From the sequence record MN655998.1: a stretch of 64,000 bases of DNA. One strand, given 5' to 3'. Positions 2,489 to 62,696 of the stretch are shown here, one piece after another. Each line of letters begins with the position of its first letter. Within the stretch, counting starts at the first letter, position 1. Under the pieces are notes generated by a model. The model ran no database searches. It had not been told where the DNA came from and was given only the letters and a program-made list of their open reading frames with translations. This DNA comes from Escherichia phage E26. A program made the translations under genes and the position numbers.

Positions 2489-2640
2489 AATATTTCCTCC
2501 ATAGAAAGCAATATCATACTACAAGTTAATAACAAATACAAGTATCCGCGTAGCGGAAGCGAGCACAGCGAGCAATAAAACACTTCCAGTAATTGATTAA
2601 TAAATGTTCGAAACAAATTTTTATTATTCTATAAGATAAG

Positions 2641-2666
2641 TCTTCGTTTTGATCATAATTTAATCA
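2641..2666. repeat. 26-bp direct repeat copy 1 (TCTTCGTTTTGATCATAATTTAATCA)
   Basis: Identical copy at 2791-2816 inside a 414-bp ORF-free AT-rich gap. Confidence 0.8.
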
Positions 2667-2790
2667 TACATGTAAAAAACTACACAAAAGGATATCGCTT
2701 CGCGAACTCCTACGGAGTATAACATTTGTGTTACAATATGTAGTGATTAATAATTAACCAAAGATACATTTTCTATGTTCTAAAGATCTT

Positions 2791-2816
2791 TCTTCGTTTT
2801 GATCATAATTTAATCA
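2791..2816. repeat. 26-bp direct repeat copy 2
   Basis: Identical to 2641-2666. Confidence 0.8.
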
Positions 2817-2867
2817 AACAGTATTAATATTGTGCACATGTAAACTAAAATTATGTTAATAACATAT

Positions 2868-2894
2868 ACAAAAAAGCCGCCCCGAAGGACGGCT
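2868..2894 (-). terminator. Rho-independent terminator (minus strand)
   Basis: On minus-strand RNA GCCGUCC-UUCG-GGGCGGC followed by UUUUU; downstream of ORF 2903..3340. Confidence 0.6.
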
Positions 2895-2902
2895 AATGTT
2901 AA

Positions 2903-3340
2903 TTATTTGTTGATAACGATCTGATTTCGGCGAATGGTAACATTACTCTTAGAGATGATCAGATCATCCGGCACTACGTTAGTTTTGTATGGCTGGAAGC
3001 GAACAAGCATCTGATTGCGTTTAGACCCTTCCTTAATCTTGATTTCCATCTGGATATTGTTGCCTACGTGAGCAACCGCAATTTCACCTTTATTCTCATA
3101 GACCAACTTGCTGGTAACGTCTCCTGCAAAAGCCTTAATAACTTGCAATGCTTCGTCGTATGCGGTAGAGCTGTGAACTTTCAGAAGGCCAGCCGTAGCA
3201 AGACGGGAGCAAGTGATCGCCGGAGATTGCCAAACATCAACATTAATTTGCTCAATCAGAGTAACACCGCCCTGATCAACTGCTTTGAATGCTTCAAACA
3301 TTGCCTTTTTCATTGCTACGTGGTTTTTACGGAATTTCAT
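2903..3340 (-). CDS. hypothetical protein
   Basis: ORF track 145 aa; no recognisable motif. Confidence 0.5.
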   Translation of the reverse strand: MKFRKNHVAMKKAMFEAFKAVDQGGVTLIEQINVDVWQSPAITCSRLATAGLLKVHSSTAYDEALQVIKAFAGDVTSKLVYENKGEIAVAHVGNNIQMEIKIKEGSKRNQMLVRFQPYKTNVVPDDLIISKSNVTIRRNQIVINK

Positions 3341-9233: not shown

Positions 9234-9859
9234 AGAATTTTAAGGAAACTGGATAGACCTGATAATGAATATACACCAGATTCCCCGCATTCGCACTTGA
9301 TCGGTACTGCCAGCGTGATTTGATTTCTTGTTAGCTCGTCGATCACTTCTTCCACTTTATCCGTGGTAAGCATATCCAGCACGCGGTCAAAGTCCTGTGC
9401 GTTCAGGTCGTCTATATTGAATTGCTGATCGCCGATCACGATATATTCGATACATGCAATTACCATCTGCATAATATCAACATCTTCTGTAAACTTAGGT
9501 TGACGAAACTTGATTTTTACTTGTCCTAAGTCCAGAATATACGGTTCAACTTCTGGTATCTGTGTGCGTGAAACATCAAGAGAATATACTTTCTCTTTAT
9601 TGCATACACCGCATACCCAAGTAGCATCAATTTTCATCTTATTGAGGCTGTGACACCATAAGAGAAGAAAAATATATTCTGCTTCGCATTTCTCTAGCTC
9701 TAATGCATTGATCCCCGTACATTCATGTATGATCTCTATAACAACCTCTGACAGCTTGCCAGTCTCTTTTGCTGCTACCAGTTTTTGAAATTCGCCGAAG
9801 GTGAAAGCACGGGCGTGTATCAACTTTTCGCCTAATTGGATCTTGAAAAAGTATTGCAT
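9230..9859 (-). CDS. 26: baseplate hub subunit gp26
   Basis: 209 aa; position between 25 and 51; overlaps 25 by 4 nt; CxxC pairs. Confidence 0.75.
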   Translation of the reverse strand: MQYFFKIQLGEKLIHARAFTFGEFQKLVAAKETGKLSEVVIEIIHECTGINALELEKCEAEYIFLLLWCHSLNKMKIDATWVCGVCNKEKVYSLDVSRTQIPEVEPYILDLGQVKIKFRQPKFTEDVDIMQMVIACIEYIVIGDQQFNIDDLNAQDFDRVLDMLTTDKVEEVIDELTRNQITLAVPIKCECGESGVYSLSGLSSFLKIL

Positions 9860-9901
9860 AATAAAACACCCTTTATAAACACATAGAATTATTTAGTATT
9901 T

Positions 9902-9909
9902 TATAAATA
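9902..9909 (+). promoter_or_regulatory. T4-type late promoter TATAAATA for gene 51
   Basis: Exact TATAAATA about 21 nt upstream of the gp51 ATG. Confidence 0.55.
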
Positions 9910-9929
9910 CCCGAAAGGGGGATTATACC

Positions 9930-10700
9930 ATGAATATTATCCGAATAAAACTACCGGAAGGTGTGCAGAGATTTAAACCATTCACGGTAAAAGATTATAG
10001 AGATTTCCTTCTGGTGTCAACTGAAATTAAGATGAATCCAGAAGAAGAACAAACGATTCTTGATGAGCTATTAGAAGAAATATATCCAGAAGTAGATCCT
10101 GCATTTCGTGAATATATTTTCCTGAATGTCTTTACTAGTTCAATTGGTAAAACTAAGATACCGCTTTGTTTTACTTGCCCGACTTGCAACAAAGAAAGAA
10201 AAATGTTGCTTAACTTACAGATTGAAGCACTAAAACCAATCGTTCTGGAGGCCGCAGGGCTTAAAATAACTTTCCGGTATGTGAAACCATCAACCGACTA
10301 TGCAAAAACGTTTCTAGATGCGATAGAGCGTGTATCTGATGGTATTAATGATTATCTATGGACTGAATTACCGGAAGAAGTTAGAGAACAGGTTATCGAT
10401 TCAATCTCATTTGCTGAATTTGAAGAAGTTGTTAAGCAGATGCACACGATCAAGATCGAACAAAAGATATCTTGTTGTGAAAGTCATGATCTAAAATACA
10501 TAGGTCTTCTTCCATTATTCAAATTGTTGTTGAATCCAGATGAGTTATTCATCTTTTATCGAATAAACCATCTATTGGCAAAATCAAATTATTCTATCAG
10601 TGATCTTATGGATATGTTACCGATTGAGAGAAACATTGCATTGACACTGGTCGAGAAAGACGTAAAAGAGGCAAACAATGCAAAGAACGGGGTTTCCTAA
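9930..10700 (+). CDS. 51: baseplate hub assembly protein gp51
   Basis: 256 aa; position and size as T4 gp51; shares a CxxC-containing segment with gp26. Confidence 0.75.
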   Translation: MNIIRIKLPEGVQRFKPFTVKDYRDFLLVSTEIKMNPEEEQTILDELLEEIYPEVDPAFREYIFLNVFTSSIGKTKIPLCFTCPTCNKERKMLLNLQIEALKPIVLEAAGLKITFRYVKPSTDYAKTFLDAIERVSDGINDYLWTELPEEVREQVIDSISFAEFEEVVKQMHTIKIEQKISCCESHDLKYIGLLPLFKLLLNPDELFIFYRINHLLAKSNYSISDLMDMLPIERNIALTLVEKDVKEANNAKNGVS

Positions 10701-11787
10701 TGTCTCAATAAAACTTTATCAGGATTATGAGGCGTTTCTAAATCATCGCTTTATAGAGTTGGGTGCTACCTTTGTTACAATGACTCTGCGTGATTCGATC
10801 CGTGGGGTCAATGAAGGATTGTTGCAATTCTATGATAATAAAGCGATGCATACAAAATTAAACGGACGAGAGATTATTCAGATTTCGCTATCCACTGCCA
10901 ACACAGATGAAGTGTTCAACCGAATCTATGGGATCTCTCATAGTAATGTAACTATTGACCAAAAATCTGACAACATTTTAACATTCCAGTTAAAGAGCTA
11001 TCACGAAACACTAAACCTTAAATTTTCTCGCGCATTGACAAATAACGCTGTTAATAACGTAACCAGTATGATTGATGCCATCTATAAGGAAGTTCCTTTA
11101 TGGAAACCTACTATAAAGGGCGATAACGTTGTTATTCCTCGTTGCCCGTGGGTTAGTACCATAAATGACTATATGGATTTTGTTAGGGCATACGGGCAAA
11201 GCGTAGAAACCGAGTCTTTCGTGTATTGCTGGGAAGATTTTGATGGTATAACGATCGCTGGACACGATACAATATTAAAAAATGAGCCAATACCAGCTAT
11301 AATCTGTGAGCCTAGACTCATGGGGCAATTTATTGATATGTCGCCTAATCTGATGGTTTTTAATTTCGAGTGGCAGACTAAGAGCAATGCTAAAGTTAAA
11401 AATTCATTTAGCAATGTGACATACACAACTATTGATTTTGTTACTAAGCAGTATAATAAAATTGTTGTTGGTAATGGGGATAATATTGCACACTTTGCTC
11501 ATGGTGGCGCTTATGGTAATTTAACTTATAAGAATGCGTTTTTGGAAGGTTCTAAACTTGCCATAATAGAACAATATGATTCATATGCTACCGCCGTGTG
11601 TCACGGTAATTTTTCGTTGCGCCCCGGTATGGTTATTCGATTCTTTGATGAGAAACAACAAGCACGCAATGATTTTATTGTTGACGAAGTTGTGCATGAA
11701 ATTAGCCGAGAGCAATCATTAACTCACCTGTATATGATCGGTAACAGCGAAGAATTACAGGAAGTAAAATTTGAAGGTAAGATATAA
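10678..11787 (+). CDS. 27: baseplate hub subunit gp27
   Basis: 369 aa; synteny 51-27-28-29; size close to T4 gp27. Confidence 0.8.
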   Translation: MQRTGFPNVSIKLYQDYEAFLNHRFIELGATFVTMTLRDSIRGVNEGLLQFYDNKAMHTKLNGREIIQISLSTANTDEVFNRIYGISHSNVTIDQKSDNILTFQLKSYHETLNLKFSRALTNNAVNNVTSMIDAIYKEVPLWKPTIKGDNVVIPRCPWVSTINDYMDFVRAYGQSVETESFVYCWEDFDGITIAGHDTILKNEPIPAIICEPRLMGQFIDMSPNLMVFNFEWQTKSNAKVKNSFSNVTYTTIDFVTKQYNKIVVGNGDNIAHFAHGGAYGNLTYKNAFLEGSKLAIIEQYDSYATAVCHGNFSLRPGMVIRFFDEKQQARNDFIVDEVVHEISREQSLTHLYMIGNSEELQEVKFEGKI

Positions 11788-12305: not shown

Positions 12306-14035
12306 ATGACGCATTAACATCATTTCGCGGGATGCGCAAGGAAGCGGAAGAAAACCCGATTGATAAACTTAACAAATTAGATAAACTTGATTCTATTGAT
12401 AATTTGCAAGCCGCTACCGAATTGGTGGCAGAGACAGTAGAACAAAAATCTAATGAAGTTGTTGGTGCGGTAGAGGATAACACCGCAGCCAATGAATTGA
12501 CGGCAGAGAATACCCAATCTACCGCTGGCAATACCCAAAAAACTTATGAAGAATTGCAAAAACTCAATAATTTCTCTTCTCAGATGAATGAGAAATTACG
12601 TGGTTTTGGTGTTATGATGGAACGTAGATTTGGTGTTGTCAGTAAAATGGCTAGCGGTATTGGTGCGATTGAAGAAGCACTGAAAAAACCGGAACAACCG
12701 CAAACAATGCCATCACCTCAGCCAGTTTTGCCTACTGTACCGGAACAGCCTAATAATGACAACTATCAAGGTCTTCCAAAGAAAAAACCAGATGTTGAGG
12801 AACGGAAGAAAAAGAACGCCGCAGATAAGCGTAATGCGGATTCTATGGAAAATCTTCTTAAAGTTGTTCGTGGAGGATTTAAAGAAACCATAGGCATCTC
12901 TAATAAGGTCTTAGGGATGTTATTTAAGATCACCTTGACCGCTATGGCAGAAGCCGCAAAATGGGGCGCTATTTTGATGGGTATTGTTTTTGCCATCGAT
13001 ACCCTTATGATTCATTTCAGATATTGGAGTGATTTATTCGAAACACAATTCGATGAATTTATGGATAAGGCCGGAGAATGGGCTGGACCAATTAGTGATA
13101 TTCTAACAACTATTCGTCAAGTTCGAGATTATTGGTCTAAAGGTGAATATGGAGAATTAATTAAATCGCTGGTTATGGGTATTGGTGATGCATTCTATAA
13201 AACCTTTATCCAACTTGATCGAATTATCACTACTGGTATTGCTAAAATTCTTCGCATGATCCCTGGTATGGGTGATTATGCCGATAAGTTAGAATATGGT
13301 GCTTTAAAATCTGCTGTCGCTCAAGGCTATACGCCAAATGAAAGAGAACTCGAATTAATGGATAAGGTCGAGTCTGAACACGAAGAGGACAAATACGGGG
13401 AGCGCACAGGGTGGACCGGAAAAGCCCGTGATATTGGCGAAGCTATTGGGGATTCTATTAAGGATAAAGTTAACGAAGGTCTTGTTAGTCTGGGTTGGAG
13501 AGATCAAAAGGATGTTGACGCAGAGAAACGACAAGAAGAGTTAAAGCGCGGGGAATACAAGTCTGTTTCTGCTGAACAACGATCTGCTAGTCGTAAACTT
13601 AAAATTAAAAGCGAGGGAGCGATCAATAATATTAATGAAGTTATGGAGAATTTGAGCGGTGACTATGACAAAGAAAGAATGGGAGAGTTGAAAAAGGATA
13701 TTGATGTTTACCGTGAGAAAGTTCAAGATCCTACATTAGTTGAAAGTGATCGTTCTCAGTTAGAGCGTCTTATTGAAAAATTTGATGAGATGTATGCTGA
13801 TAAAACTAAGGGTGTTGTGCAAACACAGCCAGTTCCGGCAACTGAAACGGAAACAGCAAAACAAGCGGAGCGTACTGAACAAATGCAGAAACAAGCTGCA
13901 ATCCAGCAACAAACGACAAATCAGACCTCAAACGTAAATAATACACAAATTGTAACAAACAATAGAACTATTAAACAGGGTGCACCAACAACTAGAATTG
14001 ATGCCCCCGGTACAATTAATATGGGGAACTTTTAA
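12302..14035 (+). CDS. 29: baseplate hub subunit and tail length determinator gp29
   Basis: 577 aa; tape-measure-like low-complexity helical protein in the T4 gp29 position. Confidence 0.8.
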   Translation: MNDALTSFRGMRKEAEENPIDKLNKLDKLDSIDNLQAATELVAETVEQKSNEVVGAVEDNTAANELTAENTQSTAGNTQKTYEELQKLNNFSSQMNEKLRGFGVMMERRFGVVSKMASGIGAIEEALKKPEQPQTMPSPQPVLPTVPEQPNNDNYQGLPKKKPDVEERKKKNAADKRNADSMENLLKVVRGGFKETIGISNKVLGMLFKITLTAMAEAAKWGAILMGIVFAIDTLMIHFRYWSDLFETQFDEFMDKAGEWAGPISDILTTIRQVRDYWSKGEYGELIKSLVMGIGDAFYKTFIQLDRIITTGIAKILRMIPGMGDYADKLEYGALKSAVAQGYTPNERELELMDKVESEHEEDKYGERTGWTGKARDIGEAIGDSIKDKVNEGLVSLGWRDQKDVDAEKRQEELKRGEYKSVSAEQRSASRKLKIKSEGAINNINEVMENLSGDYDKERMGELKKDIDVYREKVQDPTLVESDRSQLERLIEKFDEMYADKTKGVVQTQPVPATETETAKQAERTEQMQKQAAIQQQTTNQTSNVNNTQIVTNNRTIKQGAPTTRIDAPGTINMGNF

Positions 14036-17442: not shown

Positions 17443-17468
17443 TTGAGTCAACCATTATTTCTTAAAAA

Positions 17469-19520
17469 TTACATTTTAAATTTATCTGGCATTGCGTCTA
17501 CAGATACCAGATCAGCGATAAGCTGACGTAGAGTTGCCTTATCTGCTTTCTTACGTTCGGTTTTAGCTTCGCTAATGAAGCTGGAGAAAGACAGGTCAGA
17601 AGCAGGTTTAACAACACCTTCACGGATGAATGCATCACCGTCCGCGATCATCTCGCCAGATTCTTGTAATGCTGCCAGTTCATTTTTGTTCATAATATGT
17701 GCCTCAATGTAATAAGTTTCTTGTGAATCCGTCGATGCCGTAGCACGAGTTACCGTATCAAAGGATAACACAACACCGCGAGGAAGTAAAATCTCGCATT
17801 CTTTGTAAGCAAATGCTTTGTTACCTACTGGCAAGACAGGGATGTTTTCCGCGCCAGCAATGGAGAAAGCAACATTAGCGCCACCTTCACCGCGAGAGCC
17901 AGCCATAGAATCAACACCAGCAACGGCACTAGCCACGTTTGCATTCCAGCCGCCAAAAATGTTAGGTGCAAGGGAAGTGCTCACATAGTTTTTAAAGTAA
18001 AACGCTTTTTGCTTACGTGCAGTTTCCCACATTTGCGACCGGAAGTCCATACCACGATACAGAATAGTACCCGGATCAAGTTTAACTCCATAGTTGGAGA
18101 AGGCATTATCCAGTGCATCGCACATCTTGACCAATTCTTCTGGATCTGCGATGCCTTCAAACTCTTCCAGCTTACGATCAGTTAGGAAGTTGTTCATATT
18201 GATGTATGCTGCATCGGCATATTCGCTCAATACAAAACCTTCCGCGCCAGGCAGATCAAGATCAATATCTGCCATCATTTCACCCATGTTGCTAGCAATT
18301 GCTTCAAACATACCGGAAGCAACATTACGTAGGGCATCGGTTTTAATCTGTGTGATGTGACTACGCAGCATTTCAGCTTTTACATCTGCTGGCATAGACT
18401 GGTCTACTCGATCCATTGCCAGGGCGGTGATCTTGTTTTCGAATACTTCCTCGCTCATGATTTCTTTTAAGCGTTTGATTGATGCTGCGATAACTTCCGC
18501 AGACAACGGATCATATTGATCCTGAACTTTTACCAGTTCGCTTACTGCGTATTTTGCATCGGCTTCGCTTTCAAAAATAGTACGCATGAAACCATAGCGA
18601 GTGATAATATCACTTGTCCAGTCATTCAGAGAACGGGCGGTTGAACGTTCTAAGGCTTGACGATCAATCAGAGTATTAAACTGTTTCTTAGGTTCGGCTT
18701 CGGTGATATCTTCTTCTGGTTTAAGATTAATTTTTTCTGGATGATTCACGTAGTCGCTGTTATATGTCGCTTGAGTTTTCAGCATTTCTTCTTTAGTCAA
18801 ACGAGATTTAGCCGCTACGCGTTGTTCTGCTTCCGCGTTTCGTTCTTCTTCTGACACAAGACTAGCCGCATATGCCTCATCTTTAGTCAGAGATTCACCA
18901 GTAGCCTTAGATACCCAGCGATCACCTAAATCACTTTCTACTTTAGTGAACAAGGATTCATCAAGTTTAATCCCTTTAATCTTATCAATCGCCATCCCGC
19001 GACGCTTGACAACAACTAAAGCGATCTTTTTGCTGGTCATTACTTCCTGCTGGAATACTTCAAACTTCGGTGTACGACGCACCAAACGCTCTATAACGCG
19101 CTTAACCAGTTCGGTCTTACCTTTCATGCGGGATACGTTAAAACGGAACATAACAGCGTCTAATTGCGCTTTACGGGCTGTTTCCATAACCACATCAAAA
19201 GCACTTGCCATAACTGCAATCGGGTTATCGCCTAGACCATTTTTAAGCTGTACAATACGACCGCTTTTGTTCATTTCGCACAGTACAACATGTGCGGTTT
19301 TGTCACCCATACGAATGATTTTAGGTGTTTTGTTGGTGAAGTTACAAAGACGGACAATCACATCTTTATCGCGTGTCTGTACTGCAAAAAGCTGTTTAGG
19401 ATTCTGCTTAGGCTTTAAGCACTGTACCGGAGCAATACTGCCAAAGTTTTCTTCCTCTTCCGTCAACAGCCATTTCTCGAAAGATTCAATCATTAGATCG
19501 TCGATTTCTAAGTTAAACAT
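17469..19520 (-). CDS. alt: Alt ADP-ribosyltransferase
   Basis: 683 aa; ART motifs LYRGMDF, YVSTSL, ECEILLPRG; size and position as T4 Alt. Confidence 0.85.
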   Translation of the reverse strand: MFNLEIDDLMIESFEKWLLTEEEENFGSIAPVQCLKPKQNPKQLFAVQTRDKDVIVRLCNFTNKTPKIIRMGDKTAHVVLCEMNKSGRIVQLKNGLGDNPIAVMASAFDVVMETARKAQLDAVMFRFNVSRMKGKTELVKRVIERLVRRTPKFEVFQQEVMTSKKIALVVVKRRGMAIDKIKGIKLDESLFTKVESDLGDRWVSKATGESLTKDEAYAASLVSEEERNAEAEQRVAAKSRLTKEEMLKTQATYNSDYVNHPEKINLKPEEDITEAEPKKQFNTLIDRQALERSTARSLNDWTSDIITRYGFMRTIFESEADAKYAVSELVKVQDQYDPLSAEVIAASIKRLKEIMSEEVFENKITALAMDRVDQSMPADVKAEMLRSHITQIKTDALRNVASGMFEAIASNMGEMMADIDLDLPGAEGFVLSEYADAAYINMNNFLTDRKLEEFEGIADPEELVKMCDALDNAFSNYGVKLDPGTILYRGMDFRSQMWETARKQKAFYFKNYVSTSLAPNIFGGWNANVASAVAGVDSMAGSRGEGGANVAFSIAGAENIPVLPVGNKAFAYKECEILLPRGVVLSFDTVTRATASTDSQETYYIEAHIMNKNELAALQESGEMIADGDAFIREGVVKPASDLSFSSFISEAKTERKKADKATLRQLIADLVSVDAMPDKFKM

Positions 19521-27896: not shown

Positions 27897-29391
27897 CGAA
27901 TACCTCTTTTACTGTATTTGCAGTGGTCTTGTCGTAGCGAATACGTTTGATGATTGGGAGAAATAAAGAGAACTCCGGTTCATCTTCTTTACGTGATTTG
28001 CTGCGGATATACCCGTTGCATGTCATCTCAATGACTTTTCCAATCAGGTTATGACGATCAGCCCATAACATTTCTCGGTCGAGTTCATTTCTACGATCGA
28101 ACGGAATTACACGTTCAATACCATCATCACCTTTTTCGGTTGTAGTGTCGGTTAATCCAGATCCGGTGTTAGTCATCATTCGTCCGCACGCACTACGGAC
28201 AGTAAAACCGCCTACCTTATTGGGGTCTTTACTATGCGGATATACATCAACAATTTCCGCGTCGAAGTCAATCACTTCTTTAAATTTAACCTGATCTTTA
28301 CTACGGCGATCTTCAAATACACCATGTAAATTTTTAAGGATAATACCTTCTAAGCCCATGTTTACATAGCGATGATATACTTCGCGAGCTTCGTCTATAT
28401 TGTTAACTACAGTGTTTTCGATTATCTGAACACGAGGATCGTTAAGTTCTTCAACAATCTGTTTTAGTTCTTCGAATCGATCTTTATATTGCTTCGTTGC
28501 TTTCTCGTTTCCGTAATACACATCACGGTCGATAACATCCCAGACAGTGTAAACAATACATTGGGCTTCTTCTTTTGGAATAGTTCCTTTCAGTGATTTG
28601 TTGAGGATACCATTTCCGGTCTGACGATCTGCAACAACGGATTCTTTTACTGCTTCCGCTACTGGAGTTAATGGCATTTCCTCTTCTTCAAATATCCATG
28701 ACAGAGTACCATCATAAACGCTCTCAACGAAGTTCTGCGCTGGTGTTTGTGAAAGGGTAGGCATATATACCAATTCGCCATCTAGAACAATTCCACGGCC
28801 TCGTAGACGCTCTAAAACCGCAAACAAATCATCAAGCCCTTGATAGGTATTACCTGAGCGGGTATAGATTGCTAATGTTTCCCCGTCAATATCAGCCATA
28901 CCACGAGCGCCATCGCTTTTAAGTTGTGCATACGCCGGATATTTGATATTGGCAATAGTCTTATCAGAACATGACGATGCAAGGTGGCACGGTTGCTGAG
29001 GAATCAGTTTCTTCCATACCTTGTTTGCAGTGGTAGCGGAACAGCCGCATTCCAGATCACGATTCAGGACCATCATCGCAACTTTAGCATCATCCTCTGA
29101 CAAGCAAGTCAGAGTATCGGTAACTAGCTGTAATGCTGCATTACCAGTTACTTGACGCGTGGCAAGTTTATTTTTAAAGACCTGTAATGCACCGGATAAA
29201 GACAATACAGACGAATAGCGAGATGGTTTATCGTATTTCTTTACGCCAAACGTAACCTGTTTGCAATATGCCAGATAAAAGCATTCTTTCAGCGTTTCAT
29301 TGCTCGCGGATTCTTTCAGGATCTTTTCTTTCAGCGATGTTTTGTCGGTTGCTGCAAGCTGATTAATGATATTAAGAATTGACATTTTCAC
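27889..29391 (-). CDS. 30: ATP-dependent DNA ligase gp30
   Basis: 500 aa; KADGAR adenylation motif, DGELV, EGIILK, near-colinear with T4 DNA ligase. Confidence 0.92.
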   Translation of the reverse strand: MKMSILNIINQLAATDKTSLKEKILKESASNETLKECFYLAYCKQVTFGVKKYDKPSRYSSVLSLSGALQVFKNKLATRQVTGNAALQLVTDTLTCLSEDDAKVAMMVLNRDLECGCSATTANKVWKKLIPQQPCHLASSCSDKTIANIKYPAYAQLKSDGARGMADIDGETLAIYTRSGNTYQGLDDLFAVLERLRGRGIVLDGELVYMPTLSQTPAQNFVESVYDGTLSWIFEEEEMPLTPVAEAVKESVVADRQTGNGILNKSLKGTIPKEEAQCIVYTVWDVIDRDVYYGNEKATKQYKDRFEELKQIVEELNDPRVQIIENTVVNNIDEAREVYHRYVNMGLEGIILKNLHGVFEDRRSKDQVKFKEVIDFDAEIVDVYPHSKDPNKVGGFTVRSACGRMMTNTGSGLTDTTTEKGDDGIERVIPFDRRNELDREMLWADRHNLIGKVIEMTCNGYIRSKSRKEDEPEFSLFLPIIKRIRYDKTTANTVKEVFDV

Positions 29392-29851
29392 CTCGTTTTG
29401 TTAAACGTTCACGAATATCATTGAGGATACTACAAAATTCCGATTCAGTCAATATAGTCTTTAACGGATCAGTTCCACCTATACTATGACGTAATTTCTT
29501 ATTTCCGGTCGAGAGTAATGCTTTACAAAATTCTGGGTTATTCCGTGCCATCGTAACAAATGCCAGATGTACCAGTCTGTAATAATGCTCACTCATTCGA
29601 TGAATCGGGCGACCCTGAAAATATAACATGTGATTCTCAATCTTTTCAGTTCTTCCGGTTCTTTTTGCTTTGCCACCATGCATCAAAAAGATTTCTCTTT
29701 GTCTCTGAGGGTTCTTAAATCTTAGCCCCTGTAAAAATCCTTCTGTGCTGTTAATATCGCAACCAAATAGACGGAATGGTCTTTTATTGAAATTACTCAA
29801 TTCACCAGATGGATAAGGTCCACCCGCATAGATATCAATTTCAGAAGTCAT
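29372..29851 (-). CDS. NADAR / YbiA-like (DUF1768) protein
   Basis: 159 aa; N-terminal GELSNF...PF...EGFLQGLRF pattern typical of YbiA/NADAR. Confidence 0.55.
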   Translation of the reverse strand: MTSEIDIYAGGPYPSGELSNFNKRPFRLFGCDINSTEGFLQGLRFKNPQRQREIFLMHGGKAKRTGRTEKIENHMLYFQGRPIHRMSEHYYRLVHLAFVTMARNNPEFCKALLSTGNKKLRHSIGGTDPLKTILTESEFCSILNDIRERLTKRGENVNS

Positions 29852-30005
29852 TGAAACTAATCTCGCTAATCAGAGAGAACGGATCATAATCGTCATGAGG
29901 AATATCGACAGTAATCGAATGAGGATTTACCCATACACCAAACTGGTCTTCTTCGGTGAATACTTCGGTATGGATTTCGTGGATGTTTACATTCATAGTT
30001 TTCAT
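29841..30005 (-). CDS. small hypothetical protein (54 aa)
   Basis: Manual translation MKTMNVNIHEIHTEVFTEEDQFGVWVNPHS...; SD AAGGAA; overlaps next gene by 11 nt. Confidence 0.4.
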   Translation of the reverse strand: MKTMNVNIHEIHTEVFTEEDQFGVWVNPHSITVDIPHDDYDPFSLISEISFNDF

Positions 30006-30087
30006 AATAAAATTCCTTAATAATCAATAACTTACAAAATCATATAGCCAAAATATAGGCGGGATTATTTCCCGCCGTTTAAAATCA

Positions 30088-30411
30088 TTAACCGTAAACT
30101 ACCACAATATTCTGTTTGTGCGTTACAGTCCATTTCAGGTCGATCTCTTCTTCCTTCTTAACGCCGTTAATAACGTCTGGATGAGGAACTTTATTAAGTT
30201 TCCCATGAGGAAGCAATACAGTCTTGCCCAGCAATTCTTTATCAACGTTATCACCGATATCAATAATCTTACCGACTAAAGGAATCTCTCCCATAGTTCG
30301 TTTTTGCTCGATGATAATACCAAAATCGCTCTTTACTTCGGTCCCTGCGCTTTCCGCTTTAGCTTCAATGATCACATAGTCACCAAGTGCTTTAGGAGTT
30401 TTAACGGTCAT
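30088..30411 (-). CDS. 31: co-chaperonin GroES homolog gp31
   Basis: 107 aa; position after gene 30 region; GroES-like pattern GDYVIIEAKAESAG...G.IIE...GEIPLVGKIIDIG. Confidence 0.75.
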   Translation of the reverse strand: MTVKTPKALGDYVIIEAKAESAGTEVKSDFGIIIEQKRTMGEIPLVGKIIDIGDNVDKELLGKTVLLPHGKLNKVPHPDVINGVKKEEEIDLKWTVTHKQNIVVVYG

Positions 30412-30447
30412 AATTTTCTTACCTCTTCAATTCATCTCAATAGTAAA

Positions 30448-31065
30448 TTATTTATATTTCGCGACCTTTGGATTTCTCCGCAGACCGGAATGTATTTGCG
30501 CTATACAACAATAAGAAACATTAAACATATCAGCTATAATTTGCTTCTTAACTTTTCCTTTAAGCCGCATTATTTCTTCGACTTGCGCATTTGTCAGTTT
30601 TGCCCGTGAGTGGTTTTCACCGACATTGTTATTGAGTCCAGTTCTAAATGAATGTCTCATATTTTCTAGTAAGGTTACTATTTCTAGATTCCACACATAA
30701 TTGCAGGTTTTTACACCATTGATGTGATTAACCTCAAGTCCGGTAACGTCTCCTAGAAATGCATTTGCTACAAGTCGATGTATCTTTTCGGCTTTAACTG
30801 AGATTTTACCATTGTCTTTTTGTTTTGACAATGTTGAATAATAATATCCATATCGGTCTAAAATTGGTTTTATTATTTTACCAGCACGTTTTTGTTTTAC
30901 GAGCTTAATATTACCGGGAGAAACTTCTCTATAAAATTCGATACTTCGGTCAATAGATCTCAATCTACCATAATTAGAGATTTCATACCACGGATAACCT
31001 ACAGCTTGTCTCCATTCTTCCGGCGCTGGTAATACGATATTATCATCTTTTGTTTCCATTGTCAA
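30448..31065 (-). CDS. HNH homing endonuclease with NUMOD4-like N-terminus
   Basis: 205 aa; WYEISNYGRLRS (NUMOD4-like) and HRLVANAF...EVNHINGVKTCNYVWNLE (HNH_3). Confidence 0.75.
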   Translation of the reverse strand: MTMETKDDNIVLPAPEEWRQAVGYPWYEISNYGRLRSIDRSIEFYREVSPGNIKLVKQKRAGKIIKPILDRYGYYYSTLSKQKDNGKISVKAEKIHRLVANAFLGDVTGLEVNHINGVKTCNYVWNLEIVTLLENMRHSFRTGLNNNVGENHSRAKLTNAQVEEIMRLKGKVKKQIIADMFNVSYCCIAQIHSGLRRNPKVAKYK

Positions 31066-44635: not shown

Positions 44636-45610
44636 TTACATCCCTAACAGAGCGTCAAGATCATCCAGATCAGAAGCGGAGGAAGTACCGCCACCCAGGT
44701 CCAGAGATGCCATCAGGTCATCAGCGGAAGAATCTAACGCCGTGCTAGCTGCGTTAATACCAACTACAGTGCTAGCTGCGGTCATACCAGAATCGAATGC
44801 ATTCATCTGTGCGTCAAAATCGTCAAGCTGGCTGTTAATCGCTGCCGCAGCACTGGAAGCCGCAGCACCAGCTACCATAGAAACGCCCATAGTTTTCTTA
44901 AATTTGGTTTCCAGTTCATCGAACGGTTTAAACTGGCTAGGCGCTACAATCTCACTCAGATCAACCATGTTTTCCATCAGATATTTCTGATATGCTTCGT
45001 CTTCAATTTTCGGAAGCTGTGATTGCTGCATGAAACGAGAATCATCATAGTTCTGGTGTTTATCAACCTTCTTAGCTTTCAGGAGGAAGTTAGCACCGGA
45101 GAACACACAAGTTACATCTACCGGAACTTCGCCCATATCGGTATTCACGTTCACCATCGCAACGATCTTATCATAAATTTTCTGACCGAAGCGGAATTTG
45201 AATACCTTACCTTCGTTTTCTGGTGCTTGAGGATCTTTCAGTACCAGAATATTTGCGTAGTAAGACGCTTTACGTTTAATCAGTTGCCATTCGGTTTTAT
45301 CGGTATTGTACAGATCTTTTTCGTTAATATATTTGCACACCGGGCAAGAATCAAAATCACCGTGGGTGCTGGAGCAGTTTTCCCAATACCATTTTCCATT
45401 AACTTTGAAGGAATGGTTTACCAGTTTCACAATCGGCAGACCGTCTTCTGTCTTAGACGGCAGGAAGCGAATCAGGGCTTCACCGTTACCCGCTGCATCA
45501 GTCTTAATCTTCCACTCTTTCGGATCTTCTTTGGAGAAACCGTTGCCACCTTTCAGTGCGGCCAGTTGAGCTTGCAGTTTGGAGCTATCTTGACGTTTAA
45601 ACATATTCAC
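44636..45610 (-). CDS. 32: single-stranded DNA-binding protein gp32
   Basis: 324 aa; [20 protein letters not shown] zinc site, [12 protein letters not shown]; colinear with T4 gp32. Confidence 0.92.
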
Positions 45611-45657
45611 TATTCCTTCTTTTGATTAATTTACTAGACTATTATACAGATTTAAAT

Positions 45658-46251
45658 TTACTTGTCAAATACTTTATTAATTATATCTAACAACTTTGGT
45701 TTTCTATTTTCAAATTCTAACATTTCTTCGGGAGAAATGTCAACTACTTCTGTTTTATGAAAGAAATCAGGATCTATTGCATCGGCAACAAAGTTTCTAG
45801 CTAACGCAGCGGCCTTTTCGTAATCATAAAGACCTAGATACAAAAGTTTCCCTCTATCAACCTGAATACATGCTTTATATTTACCATCTCGTTTATAAAA
45901 ACTTACTCCGATATACTCAGACGTCTTACCTTTTTGCTTTCCAACATTTCTTGAGTTTTGTTGGTCGGTCGCATCTCTCAAGTTTTCAATCCGATTATCG
46001 GTTATAACTCTGTTTACATGGTCAACACATTTTGGCATATATCCATGATGCATGAAGAAAATTATTCTATGCTCTTTGTGCAATCGACCATCAAACTTAA
46101 CTACTCTATATCCAGTTCTTGGATTTACATAGCCCGCTCTAGATCCGACTTTATGCTTTCGGTTTGTCGATATCTTGCGAATCAGCTTACCGTTATCATA
46201 TTTAAAGAGTTCATGACAACGAGCATACAATTCAGGGTCATATGTTTTCAC
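45658..46251 (-). CDS. HNH endonuclease with AP2-like DNA-binding domain (freestanding)
   Basis: 197 aa; HVNRVITDNRIENLRDATDQQNSRN (HNH_3) plus SEYIGVSFYKRDGKYKACIQ (AP2-like). Confidence 0.7.
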   Translation of the reverse strand: MKTYDPELYARCHELFKYDNGKLIRKISTNRKHKVGSRAGYVNPRTGYRVVKFDGRLHKEHRIIFFMHHGYMPKCVDHVNRVITDNRIENLRDATDQQNSRNVGKQKGKTSEYIGVSFYKRDGKYKACIQVDRGKLLYLGLYDYEKAAALARNFVADAIDPDFFHKTEVVDISPEEMLEFENRKPKLLDIINKVFDK

Positions 46252-58625: not shown

Positions 58626-58865
58626 ATGGTCTATAATATCGTCATTGGTGCTTTGTCTAATTTCGGAATGAAATTATTGTCAAAGTTAATTAGTGAAAAG
58701 ATGCTCACTAAAATTTTCTTCTATTGCGCTCGTCGTCTTGCGGCTTATACCAATACGCCAATTGATGACCGTTTCGTGGAAGAACTTTATAAGGAGTTTA
58801 ATAAAGATCAGTCAGAAGATAGTAACGAGCAAGATAAACCTAGTGATAGTCAACTACCTAAATAA
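58626..58865 (+). CDS. small membrane protein
   Basis: 79 aa; N-terminal hydrophobic helix, acidic C-terminus; occupies the gene 38 position without resembling gp38. Confidence 0.4.
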   Translation: MVYNIVIGALSNFGMKLLSKLISEKMLTKIFFYCARRLAAYTNTPIDDRFVEELYKEFNKDQSEDSNEQDKPSDSQLPK

Positions 58866-58898: not shown

Positions 58899-59555
58899 AT
58901 GCAAGTTTCTGAAAAAGGGAAAGACTTTGCTATCTCAAATGTCCTGCGCGCTATTTTCACAACTAAAAGCACGGAGTTGCTCGTACTTCGTGTTTTTGCT
59001 GCCGTCGTGTTGTCCATATTGGCATTTGTCGTTTATAGTAAAAACGAGTTATTTGCGCTTTATAAAGAGACTCGTTATGAGACTTATGCTCACATTCTCC
59101 AGGTAGAGAAAGACCGCAATTTTGATAATGCAGCACAGGAGCAGTTACAGATAGTTCATGTGTCGGCTGATGCCGATTTTTCTGCTGTTTTTAGTTTTCG
59201 TCCGAAAAACCTAAACTATTTTGTTGATTTGGTGGCATATGAAGGAAAGCTACCGCACACAATCGATGAAAAAAATTTAGGCGGATTCCCTATCAATAAA
59301 ACGAGTGAAGAATATCGTAGGCATCTTTTAGGTAAATCATATTTTACCGATAAAGATTTCCAGTATATTCCATCAAGAGAAAAGAAATTAGAGAATATCG
59401 ATATAGGTTTCATGTATTCTTGTCCTATATTCAATCTCGATAATGTCTATTCTGGTAGTATCGCCATTTCATGGAAGAATAAACCGGATATTGACATTGA
59501 GAATTTAGATACTCTTTGCAATCAATCTGCCAGAATCCTCGGAAGGATTAGATAA
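58899..59555 (+). CDS. t: holin T
   Basis: 218 aa; QLQIVHVSADADFSAVFSFRPKNLNYFVDLVAYEGKLP, MYSCPIFNLDN, ARILGR match T4 holin. Confidence 0.9.
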   Translation: MQVSEKGKDFAISNVLRAIFTTKSTELLVLRVFAAVVLSILAFVVYSKNELFALYKETRYETYAHILQVEKDRNFDNAAQEQLQIVHVSADADFSAVFSFRPKNLNYFVDLVAYEGKLPHTIDEKNLGGFPINKTSEEYRRHLLGKSYFTDKDFQYIPSREKKLENIDIGFMYSCPIFNLDNVYSGSIAISWKNKPDIDIENLDTLCNQSARILGRIR

Positions 59556-59596: not shown

Positions 59597-59838
59597 CGCA
59601 TAGACGCGCCTGAATCACATTTTGACGCTGTATGATGAAAACATGTAGCGTACCAGTCATCGGCTTGTTTGTCTTCGTCAGAAAACGCGTAATTTCGTTG
59701 TATGCCGTTTTCTACTTTGACCAGTGCAATAGCTGTTTCTGGAAGATCAATCAATCGGACAAAATCACCATCTTCCCACTCTACACGAGCAATATCATAG
59801 CCCATCTCAAAGTATACAATCGCTTGTTCTAATTTCAT
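59590..59838 (-). CDS. hypothetical protein
   Basis: ORF track 82 aa. Confidence 0.45.
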   Translation of the reverse strand: MKLEQAIVYFEMGYDIARVEWEDGDFVRLIDLPETAIALVKVENGIQRNYAFSDEDKQADDWYATCFHHTASKCDSGASMRQ

Positions 59839-60164
59839 TCTGGAAACTTCCCGTAAACATTCTCTGCCAGCTTACGTGCATCTTTTACAATATCTTTCAT
59901 GTAATGACTATAATTTTTAGCTAGATCAATGATGCAATCAACAAAGAAGTAATAGCGTCGCAGTGCTACCAGCTCAACATCTTCAAGATGACCATTTTCT
60001 CCAATCGCTGAAATATGTTTAAATTCCTTTCGGATCGCGTCCATCGCTACATTAACTTCTTTTATAATATCTTTCGTATTATATGCACCTCGACTAATCA
60101 AAATTTTGGTTAGGTCTTCTGCTTTTTCGTGAAAGTTGTCAATTTCAAACTCGATCATAATCAC
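59835..60164 (-). CDS. hypothetical protein (tandem paralog pair with 60273..60605)
   Basis: 109 aa; C-terminus AENVYGKFPE parallels ENIFGKF of neighbour. Confidence 0.5.
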   Translation of the reverse strand: MIMIEFEIDNFHEKAEDLTKILISRGAYNTKDIIKEVNVAMDAIRKEFKHISAIGENGHLEDVELVALRRYYFFVDCIIDLAKNYSHYMKDIVKDARKLAENVYGKFPE

Positions 60165-60272: not shown

Positions 60273-60605
60273 TCAAAATTTACCGAAAATATTCTCTGTC
60301 ATAATTCTTGCTTCGTCGATTATTTTCGTCATGTTCATGGTGTAGTTATGATCATTTAGTGCTTTAATGACAACGAGCAAGGAATCTAAAAACACTCGAT
60401 AACGGGTATATTCTACACTATTTGTGAATACCGATGTTTTCTCTACTTTATCGATCAGATAGCCTAAAACCGATAGCGCCTCGTTTACTTCCCTTGTTAC
60501 TTTATCGGCGCTAAACAGTACCGGATAAAGACGCGGTGTGATTAACCGCGCTGCCTCTTTCAATTCTGTCGCTTTCCATGATTCATATTTGTCATAGTTA
60601 AACAT
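60273..60605 (-). CDS. hypothetical protein (tandem paralog)
   Basis: 110 aa. Confidence 0.5.
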   Translation of the reverse strand: MFNYDKYESWKATELKEAARLITPRLYPVLFSADKVTREVNEALSVLGYLIDKVEKTSVFTNSVEYTRYRVFLDSLLVVIKALNDHNYTMNMTKIIDEARIMTENIFGKF

Positions 60606-61551: not shown

Positions 61552-61830
61552 TTATCTTCGGTTGTACTTCTGCCACTTTCGGTAATACTGCTTGTAATGT
61601 TGTTTAATGTTTGTTGGTTCGTCACTATACATGTTATCAACCATCATGTCAATAAGACCTTCCGGTGTTTGATAGTTACCCGCTCGAATGAGTTCCTTAA
61701 TCAAAAGATCTTGTGTCGCTTTATACTTGACAATAACAATTGTCTTTTCTGCCTTTCCAATTCCGATCCGGTCGTTAGCTCTCATAGCATCCCACCAATC
61801 TTTTTTAAACTTCATGTTGTTAAATTTCAT
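61552..61830 (-). CDS. hypothetical protein
   Basis: ORF track 92 aa. Confidence 0.45.
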   Translation of the reverse strand: MKFNNMKFKKDWWDAMRANDRIGIGKAEKTIVIVKYKATQDLLIKELIRAGNYQTPEGLIDMMVDNMYSDEPTNIKQHYKQYYRKWQKYNRR

Positions 61831-61833
61831 AAT

Positions 61834-62634
61834 TTAACCCTTCTTATATTCGCAAACATATTGAGTACCATAATCATAGCTAATGCGACCTTTCTCGATG
61901 ACTTCAAAGCGGATTTCATCGTTTTCCCCTACCCACATTTTGTACTCGTTGAAGTATCCTGCTACATCCGGTTTGCTCATACCAACAACCATATTTTTAT
62001 ATTGTTTGCTGCGTGTCAGATTTGATTTAAACACTTCGCGCTCATCAACATATACGAAAGAAGACAATTCACCTTCGGTCATGGTCATTTTCAGCTTGCC
62101 GCCCTTGTTGCCATAAGTAGAGTTGCCATACAATGGATCTTTGCGGCTGTCTGTTTCAATACCATCAATGATTTTCCATGTAAATTTTGCAATGCACTGA
62201 TAAGTGATAGATCCAGAGATTTTCTCTTCTTTCTTCTGTTCTTCCACCACTTTTTCTTCCTGTTTCGGTTGTTCTTCGTCAACCTTCACAGAAGTCTCTG
62301 AATCGCTTTCTGATGCGGTTTCTTCTTTAGGTAATACATTCATCAAGTTTTGGATTTGAGCGTTATATACAGCCTCCAGTGGCTGGATCTGCCCGATATT
62401 GATCATTGTATCACGAACAGTTTTATTCCAGTTGCGTTGCTCTTGTTTAAGAGACGGATCAATCTTAACAGCCTTAACATACACTTCATGAAGTTTAGAA
62501 TCCAGTGCGGAGATTGACTCATTAGCACAAATAAACTTCTCTGATTTGGTAGTAGCTTTAGCGCAATCGAAGGAAGCAGCATTAGCACCGAAAGCAGTAG
62601 CAGAAAGAACGATAGCAGCGATAATGTTTTTCAT
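61834..62634 (-). CDS. secreted DUF1311/LprI-like protein
   Basis: 266 aa; signal peptide MKNIIAAIVLSATAFGANA; FDCAKATTKSEKFICANESISALDSKLHEVY...QRNW pattern typical of DUF1311. Confidence 0.55.
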   Translation of the reverse strand: MKNIIAAIVLSATAFGANAASFDCAKATTKSEKFICANESISALDSKLHEVYVKAVKIDPSLKQEQRNWNKTVRDTMINIGQIQPLEAVYNAQIQNLMNVLPKEETASESDSETSVKVDEEQPKQEEKVVEEQKKEEKISGSITYQCIAKFTWKIIDGIETDSRKDPLYGNSTYGNKGGKLKMTMTEGELSSFVYVDEREVFKSNLTRSKQYKNMVVGMSKPDVAGYFNEYKMWVGENDEIRFEVIEKGRISYDYGTQYVCEYKKG

Positions 62635-62667
62635 AATATATTCCTCAATGTTTTTCTTGATGGGAGT

Positions 62668-62696
62668 ATCTTACTACTCCCTTAATCCGGTGTCAA
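62668..62696 (-). promoter_or_regulatory. PeSL-like early promoter cassette 19
   Basis: TTGACA-N17-TAAGAT; palindrome GGGAGTA..TACTCCC. Confidence 0.5.

Follow-up and report, generated by a model that had tools for sequence, protein, structure and literature searches.

T4 Spackle (gp61.3), a helical protein made early and located in the periplasm, is an inhibitor of the gp5 lysozyme. On the bacterial side, proteins that carry a signal peptide and only the LprI domain (DUF1311, Pfam family PF07007) are recurrent predicted immunity partners of peptidoglycan-hydrolase effectors of type VI secretion systems (T6SS), where they adjoin lysozyme-like, transglycosylase/LysM and pesticin-domain types, and one such pair, the pesticin-domain Pse15 and the LprI-domain Psi15, is functional in competition assays. 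The name "lysozyme inhibitor" of PF07007 itself comes from Mycobacterium tuberculosis LprI, which also possesses an MliC domain (PMC7933661). Furthermore, promoter-early stem-loop (PeSL) elements have been described for the T4-type phages RB49 and phi1 (Arbiol et al. 2010, PMC2839356). Here, we analysed a stretch of 64,000 nucleotides from Escherichia phage E26 (MN655998.1), hereafter the window, which is affiliated with Krischvirus, the RB49/Phi1/GEC-3S group of T4-type coliphages, and in particular its minus-strand gene at 61834..62634 (positions are those of the window unless stated otherwise), whose 266-residue product joins a signal peptide and an LprI-type domain to a C-terminal beta-barrel. 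The most unusual feature of this LprI-barrel gene, unseen in the original prediction made from the same DNA, is that the barrel is polymorphic: behind a nearly invariant N-terminal domain, old and functional barrel alleles have been exchanged by recombination, and the polymorphism is kept in lytic phages as well as in Escherichia coli prophages.

The open reading frame (ORF) stands as originally predicted, with a Shine-Dalgarno sequence GAGGAA (62641..62646, minus) 6 nt before the ATG and the stop codon TAA at 61834-61836. Its first 19 residues (MKNIIAAIVLSATAFGANA; 62578..62634, minus) were assigned as a signal peptide by rules for n-, h- and c-regions and for AxA at -3/-1, with MK as n-region, a hydrophobic core of 13 residues, A-N-A in positions -3/-1 and a predicted signal peptidase I (SPase I) cut before A20-S-F-D-C. 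Five homologs of other phage groups, 37-43% identical over the N-domain, keep this junction of AxA followed by ASFDC. A lipobox was not found, as the first cysteine lies five residues past AxA, is preceded by S-F-D and is not part of an L-x-x-C motif. The cleavable signal peptide proposed earlier is hence borne out by these rules, and the protein is predicted to be exported through Sec to the periplasm and to be soluble there. The following N-domain (residues 20-101; 62332..62577, minus) matches PF07007 at residues 24-76 (62407-62565; profile positions 1-71 of 106) with 24.6 bits (E 3.5e-5; gathering cut-off 22), in agreement with the DUF1311/LprI call of the original prediction. Although partial, the assignment is robust, because JSE (24.4 bits), Marfa (22.4), SSU5 (26.2), AS-sw (30.0) and D6 (24.7) each exceed the cut-off on their own. 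Within this domain, which is near neutral (isoelectric point, pI, 8.0), Cys24 and Cys36 are invariant, and its profile retrieved a single chain from the PDB, 6AR7_A (E 0.008), via a C...Y...QRxW motif.

Residues 102-138 (62221..62331, minus) form a disordered linker rich in Glu, Lys, Pro and Gln, which marks the left edge of the variable block described below. Its predicted Lys/Glu-rich character was confirmed with the addition that it is acidic (14 D/E and 7 K/R among the 39 residues of block 102-140; pI 4.4); AlphaFold2 (AF2) models it with a per-residue confidence (pLDDT) below 45, that is, as disordered, and its length differs between alleles. The C-terminal beta-rich domain, likewise anticipated, is modelled by AF2 as an eight-stranded antiparallel barrel (residues 139-266; 61837..62220, minus; allele A), with a pLDDT of 91 and a predicted template-modelling score (pTM) of 0.84 when folded alone. 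Cys147 in the first strand and Cys261 in the last bracket the barrel and are invariant in all alleles; a disulfide between them probably closes it. Searches of Pfam, PDB sequences and PADLOC with the barrel and the whole protein returned nothing besides PF07007; in particular, four barrel alleles gave no MliC (PF09864) hit at E <= 10 and no PDB sequence hit. When the profile of the main barrel type (type I, see below) was run against 1.84 billion representatives, it recovered only its own family and weak multi-repeat PKD proteins, which we judged spurious as homologs, the match consisting of a W-x-x-x-DG-x-x-T stretch. By fold, the matches were generic eight-stranded barrels, headed by Cap15, de novo barrels and OmpW.

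In a comparison of 20 cluster representatives, the first ~105 residues proved nearly invariant, whereas the barrel occurred in at least five alleles of two unrelated sequence types. Type I comprises alleles A (window, GEC-3S, Phi1), A', B (RB49, ECD7), B' and B'', which share 33-44% identity with each other, and past the first strand no similarity to type I could be detected in the type II allele (JSE). An hhalign comparison of both types yielded a probability of 2.5% with only the first strand aligned, so that a common ancestry of the two cannot be claimed. Among GenBank phage records, allele A (at least 95% identity) was present in 12 and other type I alleles in 45, while type II was found in JSE only. 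In all alleles, the signal peptide and the cysteine framework are kept. As estimated by the Nei-Gojobori method, synonymous divergence (dS) in the N-domain is 0.05-0.25 with a ratio of nonsynonymous to synonymous divergence (dN/dS) of 0.03-0.18; between barrel alleles dS is ~2 or saturated, and within alleles the C-domain has a dN/dS of 0.12-0.32. Judged by these substitution ratios in both domains, the ORF is a real gene. Furthermore, saturated dS between alleles together with dN/dS below 1 within them indicates that the alleles are old, functional and swapped by recombination. Hypermutation of the barrel in situ was ruled out on the same grounds, since synonymous sites are saturated too and within-allele dN/dS stays below 1.

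The variable block extends from the linker into the next ORF, where it ends ~17 codons in; this ORF starts 4 nt past the stop codon and encodes 92 residues (61552..61830, minus). The first ~17 residues of its product (MKFNNMK..KDWWDAM) are conserved and the remainder co-varies with the barrel allele, as identity to the window amounts to 95% in GEC-3S (A), 46% in ECD7 (B), 43% in L012 (B') and 75% in JSE. The ORFs flanking the block are 95-100% identical. Excision from one PeSL to another was considered as the mechanism of the swap and ruled out, as the block begins inside one gene and ends inside the next ORF. The 92-residue product has no signal peptide and no credible Pfam or PADLOC match. 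Inside its ORF lies a strong sigma-70-like site, TTGACA-17-TATAGT (61652-61624, minus; 11/12 matches), a potential internal promoter that is devoid of a PeSL hairpin.

Upstream of the LprI-barrel gene, the promoter cassette noted originally turned out to be a PeSL (62662..62696, minus), in which an A-rich tract precedes the -35 element TTGACA (62696-62691), a spacer of 17 nt separates it from the -10 element TAAGAT (62673-62668), and the hairpin GGGAGTAGTAAGATACTCCC (62681-62662, -11.9 kcal/mol) overlaps the latter. About 15 such PeSL-like cassettes (A-tract, GTTGAC, hairpin and -10) are distributed over the minus strand of the window, at 17451, 20112, 22004, 22248, 25283, 25518, 26663, 27057, 35878, 36103, 39049, 62696, 62919, 63462 and 63775. 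Their hairpins come in two flavours, GGGGATC..GATCCCC within the spacer, or GGGAGTAGTAAGATACTCCC with the -10 element carried in the loop. Thus, a sigma-70-type early promoter, a stable overlapping stem-loop and repetition across hyperplastic regions are all found here, and the equivalent cassette is annotated as a promoter in the GEC-3S record. The cassettes are the published elements (PMC2839356), strong sigma-70 promoters overlapped by a stem-loop. The variable block is not bounded by PeSLs, running instead from the linker to ~17 codons into the ORF that follows. As far as its position tells, the LprI-barrel gene is an early gene, the first after its PeSL promoter. It resides in the hyperplastic region between the holin gene t (58899-59555, plus) and gene 52, amid a series of small minus-strand early ORFs. 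Over 3 kb around the gene, MIZ6, Phi1 and GEC-3S are 96-97% identical to the window; the GEC-3S ortholog, BN201_0263, is annotated as a "hypothetical protein" with an early promoter upstream. RB49ORF260c, allelic to the gene, was listed by Nolan et al. 2006 with a weak DUF1311 match (E 0.2; PMC1524935).

The gene is not confined to lytic phages. A scan of IMG/VR located it at the edge of ~35-kb proviral contigs, and a chromosomal copy was present in 26 of 5426 complete E. coli genomes, with the first 335 nt 94-97% identical to the window; PGAP names these copies "lysozyme inhibitor LprI family protein". For instance, in E. coli 14EC017 the homolog is the last gene of a prophage (with portal, terminase and Rha regulator) inserted in hicB, and is transcribed on its own. 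The homology of the prophage copy to the lytic phages starts exactly at the ATG, and its upstream region is its own, with no PeSL. Behind the stop codon, E. coli prophages retain a 25-codon remnant of the downstream Krischvirus ORF, and since this remnant came along, the prophage cassette was derived from a Krischvirus-like phage. Allele A' occurs in 11, B'' in 8 and type II in 6 prophage-bearing genomes, so the same polymorphism is kept in lytic and temperate phages. As a side observation, the 14EC017 prophage insertion truncates the antitoxin gene hicB and leaves hicA intact (9502-11065 of the examined piece). In more distant phages, the module of signal peptide, LprI domain and linker is fused to other Cys-bracketed C-domains, namely in Klebsiella phage Marfa (gp026), Salmonella phage SSU5 (SSU5_101), the lambdoid ev099 (between exo and xis), Aeromonas phage AS-sw and the jumbo phage D6. 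Relatives of the module occur in the lambdoid early-left region, including a truncated copy in one early-left operon.

What could be the function of such a protein? Our favoured, albeit tentative, explanation draws on sequence features and on analogy with the families introduced above, and holds that it acts as an early periplasmic antagonist of incoming peptidoglycan hydrolases, conferring superinfection exclusion or toxin immunity. Made early, exported through Sec and soluble in the periplasm, it would protect the infected cell, or the lysogen where the gene resides in a prophage, in that it binds and neutralises a peptidoglycan hydrolase coming from outside. Superinfecting phages, with their tail-spike lysozyme (a gp5-type muramidase), would supply the prime candidate target; alternatively, muramidase toxins delivered by T6SS or as bacteriocins may be targeted. 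The near-invariant LprI helical domain, with a putative Cys24-Cys36 disulfide, would constitute the hydrolase-binding module, and the flexible acidic linker would tether to it the disulfide-closed eight-stranded barrel, which might provide a second, allele-specific contact with some partner.

Several observations are in line with this antagonist model. The early promoter fits the timing of an exclusion function, T4 Spackle being likewise early and periplasmic, and purifying selection on both domains counts in its favour. The prophage-end (moron) position fits exclusion or protection as well, and the copies found there suggest a role in protecting the cell envelope; prophage ends and lambdoid early-left sites are the usual home of accessory protection genes. 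Moreover, no T4-lysozyme-like sequence other than gp5 was found in 142 kb of Krischvirus DNA, and ~59 Krischvirus records have a gp5 lysozyme domain of 97-100% identity, an invariance that matches that of the LprI N-domain. The predicted RB49 endolysin, ORF102c, belongs to Peptidase_M15_4 and is not a T4-type lysozyme, so a periplasmic muramidase inhibitor would spare the phage's own lysis (within the RB49 36-86 kb piece, ORF102c lies at 18719-19108 and gp5 at 29150-30952). A Spackle homolog was sought by tblastn of T4 Sp against the 64-kb window and RB49 8-86 kb with nothing credible returned, and in the syntenic RB49 61-41 interval, part of the DNA searched, an export signal is absent from all of ORF017c, ORF018c, 61.1, dc1 and dc2, which make up its content. 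The Spackle-like lysozyme-inhibitor role of the original prediction is plausible, and part of it stands: a PF07007 protein with a secretion signal lies behind an early promoter, LprI-only T6SS immunity proteins provide precedents, and no Krischvirus Spackle was found in the DNA searched.

Other observations weigh against the antagonist model, and some of them concern the Spackle analogy directly. The protein has no sequence similarity to Spackle, and its N-domain profile misses the Spackle chains in the PDB. Moreover, the "lysozyme inhibitor" label of PF07007 rests on M. tuberculosis LprI, which carries MliC in addition, and the LprI-only protein ScwA of Salmonella gave no lysozyme resistance but raised the levels of MltD (PMC7933661). 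In these respects, the original proposal was not supported. Furthermore, the Pfam alignment is limited to positions 1-71 of 106 and includes only two of the family's conserved cysteines, ScwA-type members having been reported with four (PMC7933661). AF2 renders the N-domain as four helices (residues 30-100) at a low pLDDT of 54-67, which can be explained by the invariance of the alignment there. Klebsiella phage Marfa carries a spackle homolog (144-425) plus a 252-residue LprI-type protein with a predicted secretion signal (2501-3259), ~2 kb apart and flanking the primase gene (coordinates of the examined piece), and a simple substitution for Spackle is thus not general. Finally, the barrel alleles track neither the phage's own gp5 nor the gp37 tip, which leaves the antagonist model without an account of the polymorphic barrel. 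Tracking of the own gp5 by the barrel was rejected, as the lysozyme domain of gp5 varies little among Krischvirus records (97-100% identity). The comparison of other loci with the barrel allele covered the surrounding 10 kb, gp37 and gp5.

The polymorphism is where an alternative view of the protein begins, in which the barrel is the working part, a polymorphic binding module akin to MliC, PliC or PhiA inhibitors or to lipocalins, and the LprI domain a constant adaptor or anchor. Its alleles would differ in the envelope target that they recognise, be it a host protein of the outer membrane or periplasm, a lipid-linked intermediate or one of several incoming toxins, resulting in allele-specific exclusion or in blocking of a receptor or pathway with an effect akin to T5 Llp or Cor. 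The barrel is indeed confidently modelled, M. tuberculosis LprI has the same order of an LprI N-domain and an MliC barrel, and alleles that are ancient, under purifying selection, present at 11:8:6 in prophages and numbering at least five in Krischvirus behave as specificity variants would. Nevertheless, we regard this view as rather doubtful, as none of four alleles has an MliC Pfam hit at E <= 10, the fold matches (Cap15, de novo barrels, OmpW) are generic, and the protein, unlike Llp and Cor, is not a lipoprotein. Such receptor-blocking lipoproteins were checked as candidates by lipobox and by co-variation with the receptor-binding protein, and neither was found. Masking of the receptor was likewise rejected, since among the four genomes compared variation in the gp37 tip does not follow the barrel allele: GEC-3S has a barrel allele A identical to that of the window but a gp37 C-terminus of 85% identity, so receptor specificity is not tracked. 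In addition, the same N-module is joined elsewhere to unrelated, non-barrel C-domains, which argues that the common function sits in the N-module. One might also combine both domains into a horizontally mobile periplasmic system of "immunity with specificity cassettes", wherein the constant LprI module would neutralise a conserved muramidase or dock onto it, the barrel alleles would set the competitor (phage, T6SS effector or bacteriocin) or envelope partner, and balancing selection would keep the allele set across lytic T4-type phages and E. coli prophages; this extended scenario is speculative, and we would not expect it to hold in full.

Experiments on ScwA inspire another alternative, namely that the LprI domain acts on endogenous peptidoglycan enzymes, for instance by stabilising or regulating a lytic transglycosylase such as MltD, and tunes wall remodelling of the host to the benefit of the phage. 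ScwA, in the literature covered the sole LprI-only periplasmic protein studied by direct experiments, raises MltD, and its overproduction lyses cells (PMC7933661); moreover, the phage protein is early and predicted to be periplasmic. However, in ScwA the LprI domain is C-terminal within a helical protein of 275 residues, a prophage-end gene would have no obvious benefit from this activity, and the polymorphism of the barrel would stay unexplained, making such a role unlikely. The original prediction had also allowed for modulation of lysis, for which the protein might serve as a timing accessory, a periplasmic partner of the nearby holin/antiholin system. The gene is 2.3 kb from t (58899-59555), and lysis inhibition in T4 employs the periplasmic protein RI; yet Krischvirus has its own rI antiholin (PF24205, 81.7 bits; 12388-12690 of the same RB49 piece), so that a role in lysis inhibition is not needed. 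Furthermore, the gene is on the opposite strand to t and in an early rather than late unit, and it would be out of context in temperate prophages and in the lambdoid and SSU5-like relatives, which have no T-type holin. We therefore dropped the lysis part of the prediction as very improbable. Hardly any credence is left for the view that the gene is selectively unimportant ORFan cargo whose allele pattern is a by-product of PeSL-mediated modular shuffling. Although the PeSL-rich hyperplastic location and the co-variation of the neighbouring ORF, as in a recombination block, would suit it, purifying selection acts on both domains, all alleles preserve the signal peptide and the cysteine framework, prophages independently keep the gene in three alleles, and the N-module is conserved over several unrelated phage groups.

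Variability in this part of the genome extends beyond the LprI-barrel gene. Two adjacent ORFs of ~110 residues (59835-60164 and 60273-60605, minus) are paralogs (BLASTP E 8e-08) with a common C-terminal ..EN[VI][YF]GKF, and their ECD7 and L012 versions are only 53% and 31% identical; the pair represents a further variable block in the transcription unit of the LprI-barrel gene. In RB49, gene 38 (a T2/RB69-type adhesin per annotation; RB49 45367-46143) is separated from gene 37 by ~100 kb and belongs to a hyperplastic region, and the ORF after gp37 in the window (58626-58865) has only 79 residues.

The LprI domain call itself is not new, as the RB49 allele is labelled [quoted passage not shown] in UniProt and the prophage copies bear an LprI name at NCBI. 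Our literature search found no paper on any phage member. Three features appear to be undescribed, namely that the protein combines two domains of which the barrel comes in ancient, interchangeable alleles, that the recombination block reaches into the following ORF and ends there, and that lytic Krischvirus and E. coli prophages have the allele set in common. Since dS is ~0.1 in the N-domain versus ~2 in the barrel, and lytic and temperate phages share alleles, the locus offers an unusually clean case of a polymorphism shared across lifestyles. Superinfection exclusion in non-T-even T4-type phages is essentially uncharacterised, and Krischvirus appears to be without Spackle; the gene provides a tractable entry into how such phages exclude competitors. 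Krischvirus members (phi1, JSE, GEC-3S) are used in phage-therapy cocktails, and if the antagonist model is true, a secreted blocker of incoming phages or muramidase toxins would shape the interference among cocktail phages as well as the resistance of lysogens to phages and T6SS attack. In addition, being small and soluble (as predicted), with a near-invariant N-domain and natural domain swaps, the phage protein would be a convenient system to study the stand-alone role of PF07007/DUF1311.

Compared with known systems, the LprI-barrel protein would share with Spackle early synthesis, a signal peptide for the periplasm and a helical module of ~75-80 residues stabilised by a disulfide (timing, helices and disulfide being predicted in our case), as well as the proposed task of blocking the tail lysozyme of superinfecting phages; the Krischvirus DNA examined is without a Spackle homolog. 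The two are, however, unrelated in sequence, and the LprI protein, with its additional domain, is three times the size of Spackle. Spackle is encoded at position 61-41, whereas the LprI-barrel gene lies between t and gene 52. Furthermore, Spackle binds a highly basic patch on the gp5 lysozyme and is presumably acidic itself, unlike the LprI N-domain with its pI of 8.0. M. tuberculosis LprI (Rv1541c), a lysozyme inhibitor composed of an LprI N-domain and MliC, has the same domain order, with LprI followed by a barrel, but is a lipoprotein, while the phage protein has an SPase I site without a lipobox and a barrel that gives no MliC Pfam hit and only a generic fold match. With ScwA it would have in common the soluble periplasmic state, the LprI domain and structural disulfides, the latter probable rather than established for the phage protein; it differs in that ScwA is chromosomal and all-helical, carries the LprI domain C-terminally, has no barrel and plays no role in lysozyme resistance. 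The protein also resembles the periplasmic members of PF07007, among them the predicted T6SS immunity proteins Psi15 of Pantoea and SED_RS06230 of Salmonella Dublin, which likewise have a Sec signal peptide, an N-terminal Cys-x11-Cys followed by a D...Y......QR.W helical motif and a score over the gathering cut-off, and whose family has been linked to the antagonism of enzymes of the muramidase type. In contrast to the predicted immunity proteins of this family, the phage protein is phage-encoded, predicted to be expressed early and without an adjoining effector gene; it matches ~70% of the model with two cysteines only, and its LprI domain is joined via a ~40-residue acidic linker to a polymorphic beta-barrel.

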